A DNA stretch of 40,314 nucleotides from IMG/VR virus record IMGVR_UViG_2541047163_000016; one strand, given 5' to 3'. A program made the translations under genes and the position numbers. Position 1 is the first letter of the stretch. Every line of letters begins with the position of its first letter. This document shows, one piece after another, positions 2,802 through 33,520 of this stretch. This DNA is from a virus (taxonomy: Duplodnaviria > Heunggongvirae > Uroviricota > Caudoviricetes). The notes below the pieces were generated by a model. It did not search any database. It saw only the letters and a list, made by a program, of their open reading frames with translations, and was not told the origin of the DNA.

Positions 2802-4839
2802 ATTCTGTTACCGCTTTTTTCACTTCCACCACAATGCTGTCAATCAGCACCGGGTAAGTTGCATTTTTTGTGATATCCGTTACGCGGAGTTTGTCCACCG
2901 GGAAAGTTCCTACTGGTGACTGCGTCAGGGTAAACGCGGCACCATCCTGACCATCAATAACCGGAATAACCTGAAGGCTGTTATTTCCTGCAAAACGGAA
3001 GGCCAGCGTATGCCATTCATTATCAAATGCACCAAAGGTTCCCAGTTTCTGGTTATTTGTTGCCACTTTTGCATTGTGGTACATCACATTCAGGTCTTTT
3101 GCGTCTGTCTGGATGTAGAACGATGCCAGCAGATTATTCCCTGCATCCCCTGTCAGGGTGACACCCTGCGGCAGAGAGGAAACCGGCCAGTAAAGCCCCA
3201 TGACATACTGGTTTGCCACCAGGTCGCCAGGTACTTTAAAACGACAACTGATTAAACCACCATTTTTCAGCAGTTCAGCACCAGTACCGGCATCATGATC
3301 CAGATACCAAGATGATTTACCTGTTTCCTTGGTCAGTTTCATTGCCTTACCACCTGTGCCTCCTGCATCACTGATAATTTCAGCTTTACCGCCAGCCGGC
3401 TCCCAGCCCTGGGCTTTCAGATTTCCTTCTGACTCACTGACACGATAAGACAGCAGTGTTGTGGTTACTGCTTCAGTTTCTGAAGGTGACGGCACTGGTG
3501 CTTCAGTTTCAGAAGATGGAACATCGGCTTTTACTGTGGTTCGCCCCGCATGAGTCAGAACTGCCGTGGCCAGACGGTCGGAAATAATCCCACGACGTGC
3601 CCATGAACTGAAATGGCTGGCCCGGTCCGCAGATGTCCAGGTGGCGGCACTGTTACGCCACGTTGAGCCGTAATAACCAATGGATTCAATATCCGGGTCT
3701 TCTGCCGGATTGTTGGTGGGTACATTCGCGTCATTTTCATCTGTCATTAATGGAACGAAATGAATGTTTTTATCTGTTTTGTTTTTGTAGCCGCCATAGA
3801 TTGCCTGGTATGCCGGTTCATTTTTCTGTTTCCAGAAATACGTGGTATCGCCACAAATCCACGGAACGCCAGCAGCACTGCCACCGGTACACTGTTCCGC
3901 CTGTTCAGCCAGGTCTGCGCGGAATTTTTCCACCATCGCCAGAAACAGCGCGGAATGCTCCGTCGGCTTCGCATCAATATCAAACTCGCCCTGCATCCAC
4001 ACCACAGCAAGCAGGCGGTTTTTCGGGTTCTTCGCCAGTGCCGCTTTTGTCCGGCTGATTAAGTCCTTATACAGCGGCTTATCCACACCCCAGCGGGCTG
4101 AGTCCTCTGAAGCACCCGTGCTGTCACTGTACGTGCCGTCAGCACCCGCCGTGAATGCAGAACCACCACGGCAGCAGGGAACCAGCAGAATCCCCGCATC
4201 TGCCGGAATAAACGGCAGCAGTTTTTTGGCAATGTGAAGCCCCTGACCCACGGTGCCATATTGCCCTTTAGCCACATCCGCTTTCGGGTGATTTTTTCCA
4301 CTCATATCCTGCACATCATGCAGACAGTGGTCGGCCAGAATGATGTCGTTATACTGACAGGCTTTACCTCCCGGCGTGACTGTACTGCGACGGGCTAACT
4401 GCATAATACGCGGTTCGGGGCGGTCATATGTCTCCGGCAGTGGCAGACCTTCACCGTAAGCCATACCGTTTGACTGACCAGCAAGAACCACCACGTAATA
4501 CCAGGAAGGGGAGCTGGAAGCAGTTTCATTTCCTGACGGACGGGTATGTGTTTCAGCATTATCCCAGTCTGACGGTTCAGCAGTACCGGCAACATCAGCA
4601 CTTAACGGAATGACCGCACCAATACCCGCTCCGGTAATTTCCACACTCGGATCACCGGATACTGGCCTTACCCACAGGCAATCCCGTGTATTAAAACTGA
4701 TGAGACAGTCAGCAAATGTCATTCCTCCTTTTGTTTCGGCCGGAGGAAAGGGAGCCTCAAGAAATGCCGCTGTACCACCGGAAACTTTAACAGTAAAGTT
4801 TCCGGGCATTGATGATAGTTGAACCCATTTGGACGTCAT
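2800..4839 (-). CDS. Large cargo protein: SASA/SGNH-type carbohydrate O-acetylesterase-like domain with C-terminal beta-sandwich/lectin-like region
   Basis: 679-aa ORF with verified ATG; motif VVLAGQSNGMAYG resembles the GQSN(M) nucleophile motif of sialate O-acetylesterase (SASA) family enzymes; serine/threonine/proline-rich linker (...SETEAPVPSPSETEA...) before a C-terminal ~250-aa domain. Not part of the canonical Mu gene set. Confidence 0.55.
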   Translation of the reverse strand: MTSKWVQLSSMPGNFTVKVSGGTAAFLEAPFPPAETKGGMTFADCLISFNTRDCLWVRPVSGDPSVEITGAGIGAVIPLSADVAGTAEPSDWDNAETHTRPSGNETASSSPSWYYVVVLAGQSNGMAYGEGLPLPETYDRPEPRIMQLARRSTVTPGGKACQYNDIILADHCLHDVQDMSGKNHPKADVAKGQYGTVGQGLHIAKKLLPFIPADAGILLVPCCRGGSAFTAGADGTYSDSTGASEDSARWGVDKPLYKDLISRTKAALAKNPKNRLLAVVWMQGEFDIDAKPTEHSALFLAMVEKFRADLAEQAEQCTGGSAAGVPWICGDTTYFWKQKNEPAYQAIYGGYKNKTDKNIHFVPLMTDENDANVPTNNPAEDPDIESIGYYGSTWRNSAATWTSADRASHFSSWARRGIISDRLATAVLTHAGRTTVKADVPSSETEAPVPSPSETEAVTTTLLSYRVSESEGNLKAQGWEPAGGKAEIISDAGGTGGKAMKLTKETGKSSWYLDHDAGTGAELLKNGGLISCRFKVPGDLVANQYVMGLYWPVSSLPQGVTLTGDAGNNLLASFYIQTDAKDLNVMYHNAKVATNNQKLGTFGAFDNEWHTLAFRFAGNNSLQVIPVIDGQDGAAFTLTQSPVGTFPVDKLRVTDITKNATYPVLIDSIVVEVKKAVTE

Positions 4840-4938
4840 AATAATCAGCCTGTTCCTGAATAAACTGAATTATCATATCCACAGACCGATAAACGCCATT
4901 TTGCGTTAATTCAGTAAAGGCCCAACAAAGGGAGCGTC

Positions 4939-5499
4939 TTATTTTTCCGAAACGCTCGCAGGATAATAACGATAAAGGGTTGAAAGGCCGATATCAAAAA
5001 TAAGTGCCACCTGTCTTCGACTGACACCCCCGGCCAGTAAACGCCCGACCTGCTCGTATTGTTCCTGCGTGAGACGACGGGGTCTGCCGCCGGTTCGTCC
5101 CCTTTCACGGGCAGCTGCAAGACCAGCCCGTGTCCGTTCGACAATTAATTCACGCTCCATTTCTGCCAGCGCACCCATTATGTGAAAAAAGAAGCGCCCC
5201 ATGGGGGTTGACGTATCAATGTTGTCAGTAAGACTACGAAAATTTATCCCCTGTTGCTGTAATTCATCTGTCAGCGCAACAAGGTGGCGCATACTGCGCC
5301 CCAGCCTGTCCAGTTTCCAGACCATCAGTGTGTCACCGGGTTTTAGTTTCTTCAGTGCCCGCTTCAGTCCCGGCCGCTGTGTCGTTTTACCACTCATTTT
5401 ATCTTCAAAAATCTGCTCACATCCTGCACATTCCAGCGCATTTCTTTGTAAACCTGTGTTCTGGTCATTTGTTGATACGCGTATATAGCCAATCAGCAT
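4939..5499 (-). CDS. gin: Gin/Hin/Pin/Cin-family serine DNA invertase
   Basis: MLIGYIRVSTNDQNT...VWKLDRLGRS...FFHIMGALAEMERELI... closely matches the recalled Mu Gin sequence; lies next to a gix-like site and the tail-fibre module. Confidence 0.92.
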   Translation of the reverse strand: MLIGYIRVSTNDQNTGLQRNALECAGCEQIFEDKMSGKTTQRPGLKRALKKLKPGDTLMVWKLDRLGRSMRHLVALTDELQQQGINFRSLTDNIDTSTPMGRFFFHIMGALAEMERELIVERTRAGLAAARERGRTGGRPRRLTQEQYEQVGRLLAGGVSRRQVALIFDIGLSTLYRYYPASVSEK

Positions 5500-26821: not shown

Positions 26822-27112
26822 CTACCCCCTTGCGCGTGGTTTCTTCACACCCGGAACGGTGGCGCGGCCTTCCGCCACATCCTGACCCCGGCCGGTCAGT
26901 TCAGCGATGAAATAACCATTAACGAGCGTGCGCTTACGCACCAGCCCCTGCTCGGCAAGCCAGGCAATATGAGTATGAACGGTGTCGCGGGACACGCGGT
27001 GACCGTAATCATCCAGACAGTCCTGGAGCACGGATTCACCCAGTTCGCCGTTGTAATCCGCCAGCGACCGCAGAATGACAAGACGCTGATCTTCAGTAAT
27101 GAAATCACTCAT
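26822..27112 (-). CDS. Hypothetical protein, possible winged-helix DNA-binding
   Basis: 96-aa ORF with verified ATG, between the lysis genes and the terminase genes. Confidence 0.45.
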   Translation of the reverse strand: MSDFITEDQRLVILRSLADYNGELGESVLQDCLDDYGHRVSRDTVHTHIAWLAEQGLVRKRTLVNGYFIAELTGRGQDVAEGRATVPGVKKPRARG

Positions 27113-28872: not shown

Positions 28873-29298
28873 TCAGAAAAGTGGCGGTTGCGTTCTTACC
28901 AGATGCAGACGGCGCTGTTCGCGTATGACGGTATAAATCTGGGTTTCTGACATCCGGTAATGGCGGCGAAGGGATTCAATTTTCTCGCCCCGGTCCCAGC
29001 GCGAAAATATCTCATTGTTTCGCAGCTCGGCAAAGAGAGATTCCCCGACCGGCAGGTAATAACCCCGTCCGCCCATATAGGCGGCCTGAGCCGCAGCCAC
29101 CTTGCGTGCCAGTTTACCGGCCAGTACCGGCTCAATCCCCTGACGCTGAAGTTCTGCGCCGGTGACTTCAACCAGTTCTGACAGGGTCCGCGGCCAGTTC
29201 TTTTTGAGAACATCATCAGGGATGTCATCAAGGCGGTCGATAAGGGCGTGCAGTTGCTCACTGTCACCACCAAACATGCTCATCTGAGTTTCTGCCAT
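28873..29298 (-). CDS. mor: Mor/C-family transcriptional activator
   Basis: ATG preceded by GGAGG; C-terminal region ...LPVGESLFAELRNNEIFSRWDRGEKIESLRRHYRMSETQIYTVIREQRR parallels the recalled Mu Mor C-terminal helix-turn-helix region. Confidence 0.75.
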   Translation of the reverse strand: MAETQMSMFGGDSEQLHALIDRLDDIPDDVLKKNWPRTLSELVEVTGAELQRQGIEPVLAGKLARKVAAAQAAYMGGRGYYLPVGESLFAELRNNEIFSRWDRGEKIESLRRHYRMSETQIYTVIREQRRLHLVRTQPPLF

Positions 29299-29367
29299 AT
29301 CAGCCTCCGGTTCTCGCGTTCCCGGTAAGTTTAAAATAAAAATCCCGCGTTGTGGCGGGATTTGGAG

Positions 29368-29877
29368 TTAACGGGGAAGTGATTTTTCATACTGCCTGCA
29401 AACGGCGTCATACCCCATCAGCGTGCGTTCGGGCATTCCCATCGCGGCCAGCATTTTGCGGCGGTGCCATCGCTTGAGACGCTCCAGCACATCTGAGGCC
29501 AGGGCGGGGTGTTGCTCCAGCCACTGCCAGTTTGCCACACCTTCGCCGCCGTTCTGCGCGGCCGTCTGCGATTTCACCCAGCGGTTAAGGGCGGTTTCCG
29601 CACCATCGGTGATAAAGCCCTGCCGGTGCATCACCTTCCAGATGGCGCGAATTTTGGCGGTCACCGTACCCGGTTTTAAGGCCCGGTTAACCGGGTTCTG
29701 ACGCACTTTAAAACCGCGTTTTTTGAAAACATCCAGCACGCGGGATAACTCATCCGGTGACATATCCCGGCAGCTGGTTTTGCCGGTAGCTGCCAGCAGC
29801 GCGGATGTATAAGTCTCATCATCCAGGGCAAGCTCGCGCTTTGCCACATGAATGGCGGATATCAGTTTTCCTCTCAT
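29368..29877 (-). CDS. gemA: GemA-like protein (Mu gp16 family)
   Basis: 169-aa ORF immediately upstream of mor, as gemA is in Mu; AAGGT before the ATG. Assignment mainly by synteny and size. Confidence 0.55.
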   Translation of the reverse strand: MRGKLISAIHVAKRELALDDETYTSALLAATGKTSCRDMSPDELSRVLDVFKKRGFKVRQNPVNRALKPGTVTAKIRAIWKVMHRQGFITDGAETALNRWVKSQTAAQNGGEGVANWQWLEQHPALASDVLERLKRWHRRKMLAAMGMPERTLMGYDAVCRQYEKSLPR

Positions 29878-30697: not shown

Positions 30698-31066
30698 TTA
30701 ATCAGTTTCCAGTGCTTTGCTACGGGCAACAGCCTCACACTCAAAAAATACCGACTCCGGCACACGCTCCTTTAATTCACGAACAAGAAAATCATTAACG
30801 AGTTCATGACGTCTTATATTTCTTTCCTTTTCCTCCTGGCGCAATACAGCAAGGCGGTATTCAACAGTCCGGCGTTGTTTCTGAAAGACAGCCAGTGCTT
30901 TTCTGGCAGAGTTACGCAATGTATCATCGCCACAGGGTTCGTATTCAAGCTGAAATTTAATCTCTTCAATGGTTTCTTTTATTTTTGCCAGCAAGCTAAG
31001 ACAGTCGCTGATTGTCTTCAGTTTTTCATTATCAATATAACTTCTCACGCATTCACCTCCCGTCAT
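30698..31066 (-). CDS. Hypothetical early protein
   Basis: ATG at 31066 overlaps the upstream stop (ATGA); the track start at 31090 is GTG inside the upstream gene. Confidence 0.45.
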   Translation of the reverse strand: MTGGECVRSYIDNEKLKTISDCLSLLAKIKETIEEIKFQLEYEPCGDDTLRNSARKALAVFQKQRRTVEYRLAVLRQEEKERNIRRHELVNDFLVRELKERVPESVFFECEAVARSKALETD

Positions 31067-31374
31067 TCCGGTAAAGCTGAAATATGGCACCAGTGCGTCA
31101 CCTGTCCGTCCTCATCTTCAAGGCAGGCTCCGGTTTCTTCATCAATAAAAAAGCCTTCATACCCCATATGGCCGATGCGCAGTTCCTGTTGGTCACCATA
31201 CTGAACAATCAGCACGACAGCCTCCATATCAGGCGGGAAAGCATCATTCAGTGAATGCCAGGGATAACCGCGCAAATCCCCGAAATAAACACCGGTCAGC
31301 GTTCCGCCACAGACCGGCATTCCGACGGCACACACAAGGGGTTCATCTGATTCAACAAATAATGTCGTTATCAT
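31063..31374 (-). CDS. Hypothetical early protein
   Basis: 103-aa acidic ORF with verified ATG. Confidence 0.5.
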   Translation of the reverse strand: MITTLFVESDEPLVCAVGMPVCGGTLTGVYFGDLRGYPWHSLNDAFPPDMEAVVLIVQYGDQQELRIGHMGYEGFFIDEETGACLEDEDGQVTHWCHISALPE

Positions 31375-31922
31375 GGCATTAATTCCCGTAATACAACATC
31401 TTCGGCAGTCCGACGACGGTGATAAATAAAACTCACCGTGCCCTCGGATAATTCAAATTTCTCGCCGATTTCCCTAAAGGTAAGACGCCGTGGTGATTCA
31501 GCATCCCGTAATTCACGAATAAGACGAACATCATCGTCAGGTATGCGGGTGAAGGGCAGCAACTCTCCGTATTTTTTCATGCTTACGCCAATATATCGCG
31601 CCCGATTGTGGACAGAATCCCGGTCTCGCCCCAGATATTCTCCTATTTGCTTACCGGTCATTGTTCTGGCATTTTTTCGGATAAATTTATCTTCATCAGG
31701 TTTAAATCTGAGGCGTTTGCATTTGAGCAACTCCGGGTAAGTACCGCGTAATAAAACAATCCGGTTATGTACACCCCAGAAACTTCTTTTTATCCTGACA
31801 GCAATATCCTTAACCGGGGTGGATGGATAAAGCGCAATCAGCAGCGCATCTTCTTCAGGTGTCCATGCGCGAACATGAGCGGGTGCACGGCCTTTTCTCC
31901 CCATGGGTTGTAATATCATCAT
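31371..31922 (-). CDS. Putative DNA-binding protein with two Myb/SANT-like repeats and a C-terminal helix-turn-helix
   Basis: Repeat 1 WTPEEDALLIALY...FWGVHNR; repeat 2 FKPDEDKFIRKNAR...DSVHNRARY; C-terminus LTFREIGEKFELSEGTVSFIYHRR resembles sigma-70 region 4/LuxR-type HTH. Confidence 0.45.
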   Translation of the reverse strand: MMILQPMGRKGRAPAHVRAWTPEEDALLIALYPSTPVKDIAVRIKRSFWGVHNRIVLLRGTYPELLKCKRLRFKPDEDKFIRKNARTMTGKQIGEYLGRDRDSVHNRARYIGVSMKKYGELLPFTRIPDDDVRLIRELRDAESPRRLTFREIGEKFELSEGTVSFIYHRRRTAEDVVLRELMP

Positions 31923-31925
31923 GCA

Positions 31926-32441
31926 TCACCCCCTGACTCGCTTTTCAGCAGCATAAAACTCATCAGACAGAATTTCGGTCATTTTCTGATTTGCGGGTTT
32001 TACGCCGCACTCAAGGTAAATCACATCGTCAACGCAGAACCACTTCACAGGGCCAAACATGATTGCCGAGAAATCAATACCCAGCCAGAACAACAGTGCA
32101 TCGGTTCTGGCATACGTGACGGGCGAATATTCACGCCACAGACTGTTAAGTTCGTCAGAGGCAACGCGCAGGGCTTTGGGAATACGTGATGTGCGCGGTG
32201 TGCAGCTCCAGCCATTCGACGCAGTCGGTTTTCGCCATAAGTCGCGATGAAAAGGATATTTGTCATCCATAAAGCGCAGCCCTTTAAAACAAAAGCCACT
32301 GATACCGGATACAAATACCGACCGGCACGCAACATTCAGCACGGCCTCAAGGCGTTTTGCCTCATCCTTAACTTTCTGGCAGTCCTGCTGATATTTTTGC
32401 CACGCGGCCAGCGCGGAAGGGTTTGATGTTTTAAAGAACAT
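31926..32441 (-). CDS. Hypothetical early protein
   Basis: 171-aa ORF; stop/start overlaps with neighbours. Confidence 0.5.
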   Translation of the reverse strand: MFFKTSNPSALAAWQKYQQDCQKVKDEAKRLEAVLNVACRSVFVSGISGFCFKGLRFMDDKYPFHRDLWRKPTASNGWSCTPRTSRIPKALRVASDELNSLWREYSPVTYARTDALLFWLGIDFSAIMFGPVKWFCVDDVIYLECGVKPANQKMTEILSDEFYAAEKRVRG

Positions 32442-32977: not shown

Positions 32978-33520
32978 TTATTCCTCCGTCAGCGCCACAT
33001 ATTCAGAATGTTTAATCTCCTGGCATTCTTCAGGAATACCCCCTTTTATTTCCCTGCCATAAGCGCCTACTTTAAACACCACGCACAGGGCATCACGGGA
33101 GAGCGACGGGGTCCACCAGGAGTCCATGTTAAACATGGAGGGGATTCTCATTACCCCCAGCTTTTCACAGAGCCAGACAAGGAAATCAGGACGCTTTCTT
33201 AACTCGCGTTCAGCGGCTTCAATCATTGCGGCAATCGCCGGTCCTTCAGGGCATGACTCATCAGGTCTGGCAATAAAGCACGGTCCGTCCCCGATAAAAG
33301 CCACATCATCGCGCTTACGCCAGCCCGCAGGCAGAGCACCAGAAAAATAAAACTCACTGATTACGTCCATGGCAAACGGCTTTAAGCGCAATCCGGCAGC
33401 GCCTGTATTTTTCAGTAATGCCCGAAGAATACTGTTGCGTAGCGGTAAAACAGTCTGTTGATATTTGGTGAAATATTTATTTGTCTGCACACGGTCTAAT
33501 TTGAAATAAAAATATGCCAT
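32978..33520 (-). CDS. Hypothetical early protein
   Basis: 180-aa ORF, AAGGAACAGG before the ATG. Confidence 0.5.
   Translation of the reverse strand: MAYFYFKLDRVQTNKYFTKYQQTVLPLRNSILRALLKNTGAAGLRLKPFAMDVISEFYFSGALPAGWRKRDDVAFIGDGPCFIARPDESCPEGPAIAAMIEAAERELRKRPDFLVWLCEKLGVMRIPSMFNMDSWWTPSLSRDALCVVFKVGAYGREIKGGIPEECQEIKHSEYVALTEE

Follow-up and report, generated by a model that had tools for sequence, protein, structure and literature searches.

The D5 protein of phage T5 (T5.118, 255 aa) is described in RefSeq as a DNA-binding protein that is required for DNA replication and late transcription, and is involved in (early) shut-off. Its primary reference, as cited in PMC12630848, is McCorquodale 1979. 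According to a 2026 preprint (bioRxiv 10.64898/2026.07.11.737809), D5 is toxic when expressed alone, and it triggers retron-Kva2, where its helix-turn-helix (HTH) fold binds the stem-loop of the multicopy single-stranded DNA (msDNA). A smaller relative, gp9 (Mup09, formerly E8; 99 aa), is found in phage Mu. The window analysed here is the whole stretch of 40,314 nt held as IMG/VR record IMGVR_UViG_2541047163_000016, a Mu-like prophage of E. coli O157. Its early region contains a gene on the minus strand (31371..31922) for a protein of 183 aa, named 'DNA-binding protein' in RefSeq (WP_000973023.1). On balance, the favoured explanation is a small basic three-unit Myb-like protein, made from the early operon, that would act as a D5-like accessory regulator with sequence-specific DNA binding. 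The part of this explanation that concerns fold, family, and DNA binding is highly probable.

The protein is already known as an annotation, either as a DNA-binding, SANT/Myb or (wrongly) AsnC-family protein, and it belongs to a named PHROG. As a relative of Mu gp9 and T5 D5, it is a predicted member of an established phage family rather than a new kind of protein. Literature searches on Myb proteins of Mu-like prophages, Mu gp9, the semi-essential early region, and D5-like proteins returned nothing on the product of this gene. The present analysis adds the three-unit architecture, an explicit connection with both Mu gp9 and T5 D5, the uneven charge of the units, and an allele-cassette pattern at the recognition helices.

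The feature that had been singled out by an earlier sequence-only reading of the window corresponds to a single open reading frame (ORF). Its product has a computed mass of 21.5 kDa and a computed isoelectric point of 10.2. The coding sequence and the parts of the protein are as follows, with model confidence given as the predicted local distance difference test (pLDDT):

31371..31922, minus strand: coding sequence of the D5-like protein of three Myb-like HTH units (ORF list, RefSeq CDS WP_000973023.1, phrog_323).
31866..31922, minus strand: N-terminal arm, aa 1-19, consensus MILxPMGxPGKCPAHxRxW (mean entropy 0.92 bits, pLDDT 51-69).
31737..31865, minus strand: unit 1, aa 20-62, WTPEED start, helices 22-31, 37-44, and 48-61, basic (AlphaFold2, hhalign, c-Myb alignment).
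31578..31706, minus strand: unit 2, aa 73-115, FKPDED start, helices 75-84, 90-97, and 101-110, the most basic unit (hhalign, AlphaFold2, c-Myb alignment).
31410..31544, minus strand: unit 3, aa 127-171, IPDDD start, helices 129-140, 149-156, and 160-169, near-neutral to acidic (hhalign, AlphaFold2, sub-threshold Pfam HTH matches over 131-169).
31380..31406, minus strand: an extra conserved C-terminal helix, aa 173-181, consensus TAxDAIAREYLP (AlphaFold2, entropy 0.85 bits).

The sequence contains W20-T-P-E-E-D with H52-N-R54, and F73-K-P-D-E-D with H105-N-R107, and both motif pairs are spaced by exactly 53 residues. Comparison of the two repeats in the single sequence is of modest significance (z = 4.0; the score is equalled in 9 of 2000 shuffles). 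Sub-alignments cut from an alignment of 62 orthologues (A2) were also compared with hhalign. Unit 1 matches unit 2 with 98.7% probability (P 2.4e-16), unit 2 matches unit 3 with 93.4% (P 2.5e-7), and unit 1 matches unit 3 with 62.5% (P 7e-5). The two tandem repeats proposed in the sequence-only reading are thus confirmed at the profile level. The same matches indicate that the C-terminal HTH, which starts at I127-P-D-D-D and had been read as a sigma-region-4-like domain, is by sequence a diverged third copy of the 53-54-residue unit and no separate domain. It carries five additional residues in the loop that joins its first two helices.

The (W/F)xPEED-like starts and the HNR triplets are both present as had been described, but the HNR is not a motif of the family, as only its arginine is kept. 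The columns of H52, N53, H105, and N106 rank with the most variable of the alignment (2.8-3.8 bits). No variation is seen at R54, and conservation at R107 is moderate. The net charge of the units, averaged over the 62 orthologues, is +3.7 for unit 1, +7.4 for unit 2, and -1.5 for unit 3, and this asymmetry is conserved. A metal site formed by the cysteine and histidine residues of the arms was considered and set aside, since these residues are not conserved together.

The AlphaFold2 model built on A2 has a mean pLDDT of 87.7 and comprises three three-helix HTH units and one C-terminal helix, with low model confidence in the first 19 residues. The C-terminal part is an HTH in this model, as the sequence-only reading had suggested. 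The A2 profile matches the R2R3 region of c-Myb (1h88_C) at E 1.4e-7, with units 1 and 2 in register with R2 and R3. Precomputed matches to the Myb family PF00249 are found in several orthologues. The target alone reaches 16.9 bits against the cut-off of 24.4, with only residues 19-31 matched, and a single-sequence search of the PDB gives no significant match. Further fold resemblances are to the SANT domains of Bdp1 and CoREST, the HTH of Tc3 transposase, the R2R3 Myb proteins WER and c-Myb, and Cdc5/Cef1. The protein thus resembles c-Myb R2R3 in its tandem three-helix units of ~52 aa, which are homologous to solved Myb repeats, and shares with it the period of 52-53 residues, the W-T-x-E-E-D start of helix 1, and a basic third helix. 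In contrast, it lacks the three spaced core tryptophans of Myb. Only the first position is aromatic (W20 in unit 1, F73 in unit 2), and it is I127 in unit 3. The third position is aliphatic in the c-Myb alignment, and the second is also aliphatic when read against R2. The phage origin, the sub-threshold Pfam score, and the presence of a third, acidic unit also separate the prophage protein from c-Myb. With structure prediction and profile comparison both giving HTH and Myb-like folds, the Myb/SANT-like reading of units 1 and 2 holds at the level of predicted fold and remote homology.

A specific relationship of unit 3 to sigma region 4 is not supported. The match to Pfam Sigma70_r4 (PF04545) reaches 23.3 bits, below the cut-off of 24.1, and stands amid equally weak AsnC, MarR, and HTH_11 matches. 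NCBIfam gives only a sub-threshold match to an extracytoplasmic function (ECF) sigma family (TIGR02937, 18.9 against a cut-off of 42.9). The profile of unit 3 (A3) finds nothing significant in the PDB, where SigA scores E 3.4 and is outranked by HTH proteins of the XRE and Lrp types. A related idea from the sequence-only reading is that the protein acts mainly by protein contacts, as a sigma region 4 mimic, an RNA-polymerase appropriator, or an anti-repressor. On this view, unit 3 would form the interface together with the C-terminal helix and the arm at the N terminus. Sequence conservation is strongest in that helix, in the arm, and in the first two helices of unit 3 (0.7-0.9 bits), which would fit such an interface, as would the acidic character that unit 3 shares with SANT domains and the weak Sigma70_r4 and ECF-sigma matches on residues 142-169. 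However, these sigma matches are below the cut-off and no better than those to AsnC, MarR, and XRE-type HTHs, unit 3 is a diverged copy of unit 2, and units 1 and 2 resemble DNA binders in both charge and fold. A mode of action mainly by protein contacts is therefore quite unlikely. No similarity to known anti-repressors, to appropriators of the AsiA/MotA type, or to anti-sigma factors was found in Pfam, PHROGs, NCBIfam, or PADLOC, which counts further against it, and neither anti-repressor or sigma-mimic roles nor a redirection of RNA polymerase has support.

Most orthologues (P0001, P0003, P0009, and others) carry the NCBI name 'AsnC family protein'. Membership of the AsnC/Lrp family is rejected, as the HTH_AsnC-type match is below threshold (21.5 bits against a cut-off of 27) and the AsnC_trans_reg/RAM domain gives no Pfam match in the target even at E up to 10. 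From these domain searches the name appears to be a propagated misnomer. GcrA was also considered. Its N-terminal domain (5yiu; PF07750) is likewise a Myb-like HTH of bacteria and phages, and PF07750 is matched by some relatives of the prophage protein with long unit arrays. In contrast to GcrA, the prophage protein has three units instead of one, has no separate C-terminal sigma-70-binding domain, and gives no Pfam match to PF07750. With only a single-unit fold similarity to 5yiu, it is not assigned to GcrA.

The closest named family is phrog_323, 'transcriptional regulator, D5-like', which is matched at E 6.3e-58, with residues 2-182 on profile positions 80-256 of 319. T5 D5, the name-giver of this PHROG, matches it at E 1.2e-71, and was also found by hmmsearch in the phage loci examined (E 3.4e-10). 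Aligned with the A2 profile, D5 is matched by hhalign with 97.1% probability (P 7.5e-11) over 147 columns that include all three units, and its repeats start with PWTPEQE and SFTPDEE, similar to the unit starts of the prophage protein. Both are early-expressed phage proteins with an HTH DNA-binding fold. The two proteins also differ. D5 has ~70 extra N-terminal residues and a near-neutral charge, and the lytic phage that encodes it cannot replicate or carry out late transcription without it. The prophage protein is strongly basic and is encoded in a mosaic accessory region. Within the family, binding of double-stranded DNA and an effect on late transcription or replication are known for D5 alone. 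A role of the prophage protein as a regulator is plausible by its homology to D5.

Mu gp9 belongs to the same PHROG (E 5.2e-29 to phrog_323). Its two units are homologous to the second and third units of the prophage protein (hhalign 98.3%, P 1.3e-14; BLASTP 32% identity over 101 aa), with unit 1 of gp9 aligned to unit 2 of the prophage protein. Both proteins are encoded in the semi-essential early region of a transposable phage. However, gp9 has two units instead of three and lacks the N-terminal arm and unit 1. Its gene lies immediately upstream of gam, whereas the prophage gene lies downstream of the gp12 homologue. The sequence-only reading had placed this domain combination outside the classical early set of Mu. 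That holds for the three-unit form and for the slot after gp12, but the family itself is present in Mu as gp9. No gp9 homologue was found at the gp9 position of the window prophage, and a six-frame scan of the window shows no second family copy or gp9-type paralogue. Each phage locus examined has exactly one family member.

Variation within the family is concentrated in the third helices. In all three units, variability across the 62 orthologues peaks in the third helix (2.3-2.4 bits), and helices 1 have 0.7-1.4 bits. Taken together, the third helices have 2.36 bits against 1.29 bits for helices 1 and 2 (Mann-Whitney p 5e-6). Buried positions and the arginine residues are conserved in the third helices, and the exposed positions are variable.

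Set against locus L008, a further prophage of E. coli, the window carries a divergent allele of the gene. The two gene products are 72% identical, and all 19 neighbouring proteins are 95-100% identical. Of the 292 nucleotide differences over 12.5 kb, 121 are inside the gene. The rate of synonymous substitution (dS) between the two alleles is 0.69, and the ratio of non-synonymous to synonymous rates (dN/dS) is 0.24. The proportion of non-synonymous differences (pN) is highest in the third helices (0.23-0.38). The proportion of synonymous differences (pS) is only 0.05 over codons 20-45 and is high afterwards, which places a 5' recombination junction near codon 45, just before the first recognition helix. 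This pattern indicates an old divergent allele that was swapped in by recombination. Recent positive selection as the source of the divergence is rejected from the dS and dN/dS values. Elsewhere, further early accessory genes have a mosaic structure as well, so this gene is not the only one to show this notable pattern. In the comparison with L008, the cluster of differences that ranks second in density lies at 26900-26999 of the window (14 differences in 100 nt), in small genes adjoining a gp27-family gene.

The main rival to sequence-specific binding is that the protein is an architectural or coating protein of double-stranded DNA without sequence specificity, as is the classical view of T5 D5, and has a global effect with no defined operator. 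Consistent with this is the homology to D5, whose annotation is that of a general DNA binder needed in replication and late transcription, and which by itself is toxic. The high isoelectric point also fits, as does the conservation of only the arginine residues and the buried positions of the third helices, as if backbone contacts alone mattered. However, discrete divergent alleles at this level of dS in near-identical prophages are easier to understand if their specificities differ. Pairs of the Myb R2R3 type are typically sequence-specific binders. D5 is charged differently, and the prophage gene occupies a dispensable accessory slot, with only a two-unit form in Mu. Architectural binding of this kind is possible but rather unlikely.

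At E up to 0.001, an exhaustive search of representatives gives 788 relatives, among them full-length orthologues of ~180 aa and two-unit proteins of ~100-170 aa. Many relatives of 300-800 aa are matched three to ten times and thus consist of long unit arrays. Ten of these long-array relatives, which are metagenomic singletons, were scanned with Pfam. Their repeats match Myb_DNA-binding, Sigma70_r4_2, and HTH_23, with GcrA (PF07750) in some, and two of the ten are fused to helicase domains of the ResIII/SNF2 type. In mycobacteriophages, the same unit is fused to or overlaps genes for HNH endonucleases and methylases, and in phage genomes it is also found adjoining such genes. A structural search of the BFVD returns 27 matches (E up to 0.001), of which almost all are uncharacterised phage proteins or endonucleases. 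PADLOC gives two weak matches only (E about 0.01-0.02), one of which is named 'homing endonuclease'. These associations, together with the sensing of T5 D5 by retron-Kva2, would fit a further reading, on which the protein is an orphaned module for DNA targeting, like those joined to homing HNH endonucleases, methylases, and helicases. It would then be a selfish remnant, or a decoy for host defence sensors of D5-like HTH proteins. In contrast, no nuclease gene is adjacent, the ORF is intact and under purifying selection, there is one copy per phage locus, and the gene occupies a fixed syntenic slot in Mu-like prophages and likewise a fixed slot in P2-like prophages. An orphaned module is very unlikely.

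The favoured explanation remains a basic three-unit Myb-like regulator with sequence-specific DNA binding. The strongly basic units 1 and 2 would act as a pair similar to Myb R2R3, with their third helices in adjacent stretches of the major groove and the invariant arginine residues helping to anchor them. The DNA sequence bound would be set by the variable exposed faces of the third helices. Unit 3, the C-terminal helix, and the N-terminal arm may extend the contact with DNA or hold a partner protein. The protein is most likely a monomeric multi-HTH protein. It would act as a D5-like accessory regulator that the phage can dispense with, binding DNA of the phage or the host soon after induction and modulating transcription and/or replication. 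Divergent alleles with different recognition helices would be exchanged between near-identical prophages.

Several observations weigh against this explanation. Variable third helices are also expected for a non-specific DNA binder or for a weakly constrained helix face. No candidate binding site was found, as no non-coding block co-varies with the two alleles in the 12.5 kb compared, a locus that did not cover the operator region. The acidic character of unit 3 argues against DNA binding by all three units. The predicted template modelling score of the AlphaFold2 model is low (0.59) and leaves the domain arrangement, that is the relative placement of the units, undefined. A Foldseek search of the PDB with the whole model gives no match below E 0.07, and its loose multi-HTH resemblances are to DUX4, sigma factors, Mos1, and Tc3. 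T5 D5 is a remote homologue with ~27% identity over the aligned columns and a different charge, and its function may not transfer. As it stands, the protein is an ordinary accessory HTH protein and a predicted DNA binder.

The gene lies in a co-directional and tightly packed array between gam and mor. The order of transcription is transposase A, B, kil, gam, the gp11 homologue, the gp12 homologue, the gene itself, five small ORFs, gemA, mor, and lysozyme. Its ends are closely set against the neighbouring genes, as follows:

31929..31934, minus strand: Shine-Dalgarno-like AGGGGG, 6-11 nt 5' of the ATG (read from the sequence).
31926-31928, minus strand: TGA stop of the upstream homologue of Mu gp12, abutting AGGGGG (read from the sequence).
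31371..31374, minus strand: ATGA, in which the stop of the gene overlaps the start of the next early ORF, 31063..31374 (ORF coordinates and sequence).

The overlap of stop and start in ATGA indicates translational coupling with the next early ORF. Promoter-like and terminator-like sites are not in excess in the region around the gene. The gene is most simply read as part of a predicted early transcript, because of the co-directional array, the AGGGGG, the ATGA overlap, and the lack of enrichment of promoters and terminators.

Further downstream, a strong terminator-like hairpin is present on the minus strand at 29340-29363, between gemA (29368-29877) and the mor-family gene (28873-29298). It comprises a 9-bp stem with 5 G-C pairs followed by TTATTTT, and could be the end of an early transcript directly before mor. 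The mor-family gene is the single Mor/C-family activator gene annotated in the 17.5 kb around the gene, and lies directly upstream of the lysozyme gene. In Mu, by contrast, both mor and C are present, with three small genes between them. The slot between gam and the gp11 homologue contains an ORF of 180 aa (phrog_2260; 32978-33520, minus strand). The same slot in other Mu-like prophages (L014-L016, about 4367-4946) is occupied by an unrelated DUF5420 gene of 192 aa, and is thus another swap point of the early region.

A region of 6.5 kb around the gene has 97% identity to a 'Bacteriophage Mu-like phage' that is inserted in records of Stx (Shiga toxin)-converting phages. In Mu-like prophages of E. 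coli and Salmonella, the gene is always found after the gp11 and gp12 homologues. The P2-like Citrobacter phage Shae_phiSM has an orthologue in its early operon, between an ead/Ea22-like gene and a replication gene. In P2-like Salmonella prophages, the orthologue is in the early operon after genes for a Dam-type methylase and a DUF4406 protein. The DUF4406 gene overlaps the start of the orthologue in these prophages (L004, 5699-6537), and a Salmonella protein of 280 aa (cluster P0221) has DUF4406 fused with the D5-like family. The P1-like phage D6 has a two-unit form. Family members occur in Mu-like, P2-like, and P1-like phages, which marks the gene as a mobile accessory of temperate-phage early regions rather than a function specific to Mu.

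A wider reading of the allele pattern is that the three-unit D5-like proteins of temperate enterobacterial phages are exchangeable 'specificity cassettes' under diversifying or balancing selection, with the differences between alleles almost confined to the exposed faces of the recognition helices. This joint claim is speculative and is given little credence. The reason for such exchange may be a different DNA target for each allele, for example own DNA versus that of a competing phage, or escape from host sensors, such as type IX retrons that detect the HTH surfaces of D5-like proteins.

The analysis gives a concrete, testable assignment for an early gene whose surrounding 1.5-kb stretch is matched in 232 of the 5,426 complete genomes of E. 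coli, among which O157 and further strains that produce Shiga toxin are numerous, and it ties this gene to the long-unexplained gp9/E8 of Mu and the classical D5 of T5. If DNA specificity is indeed set by allele-specific recognition helices, the family would provide a small natural collection of modular DNA binders, and could account for some of the mosaicism of temperate phages in their early regions.
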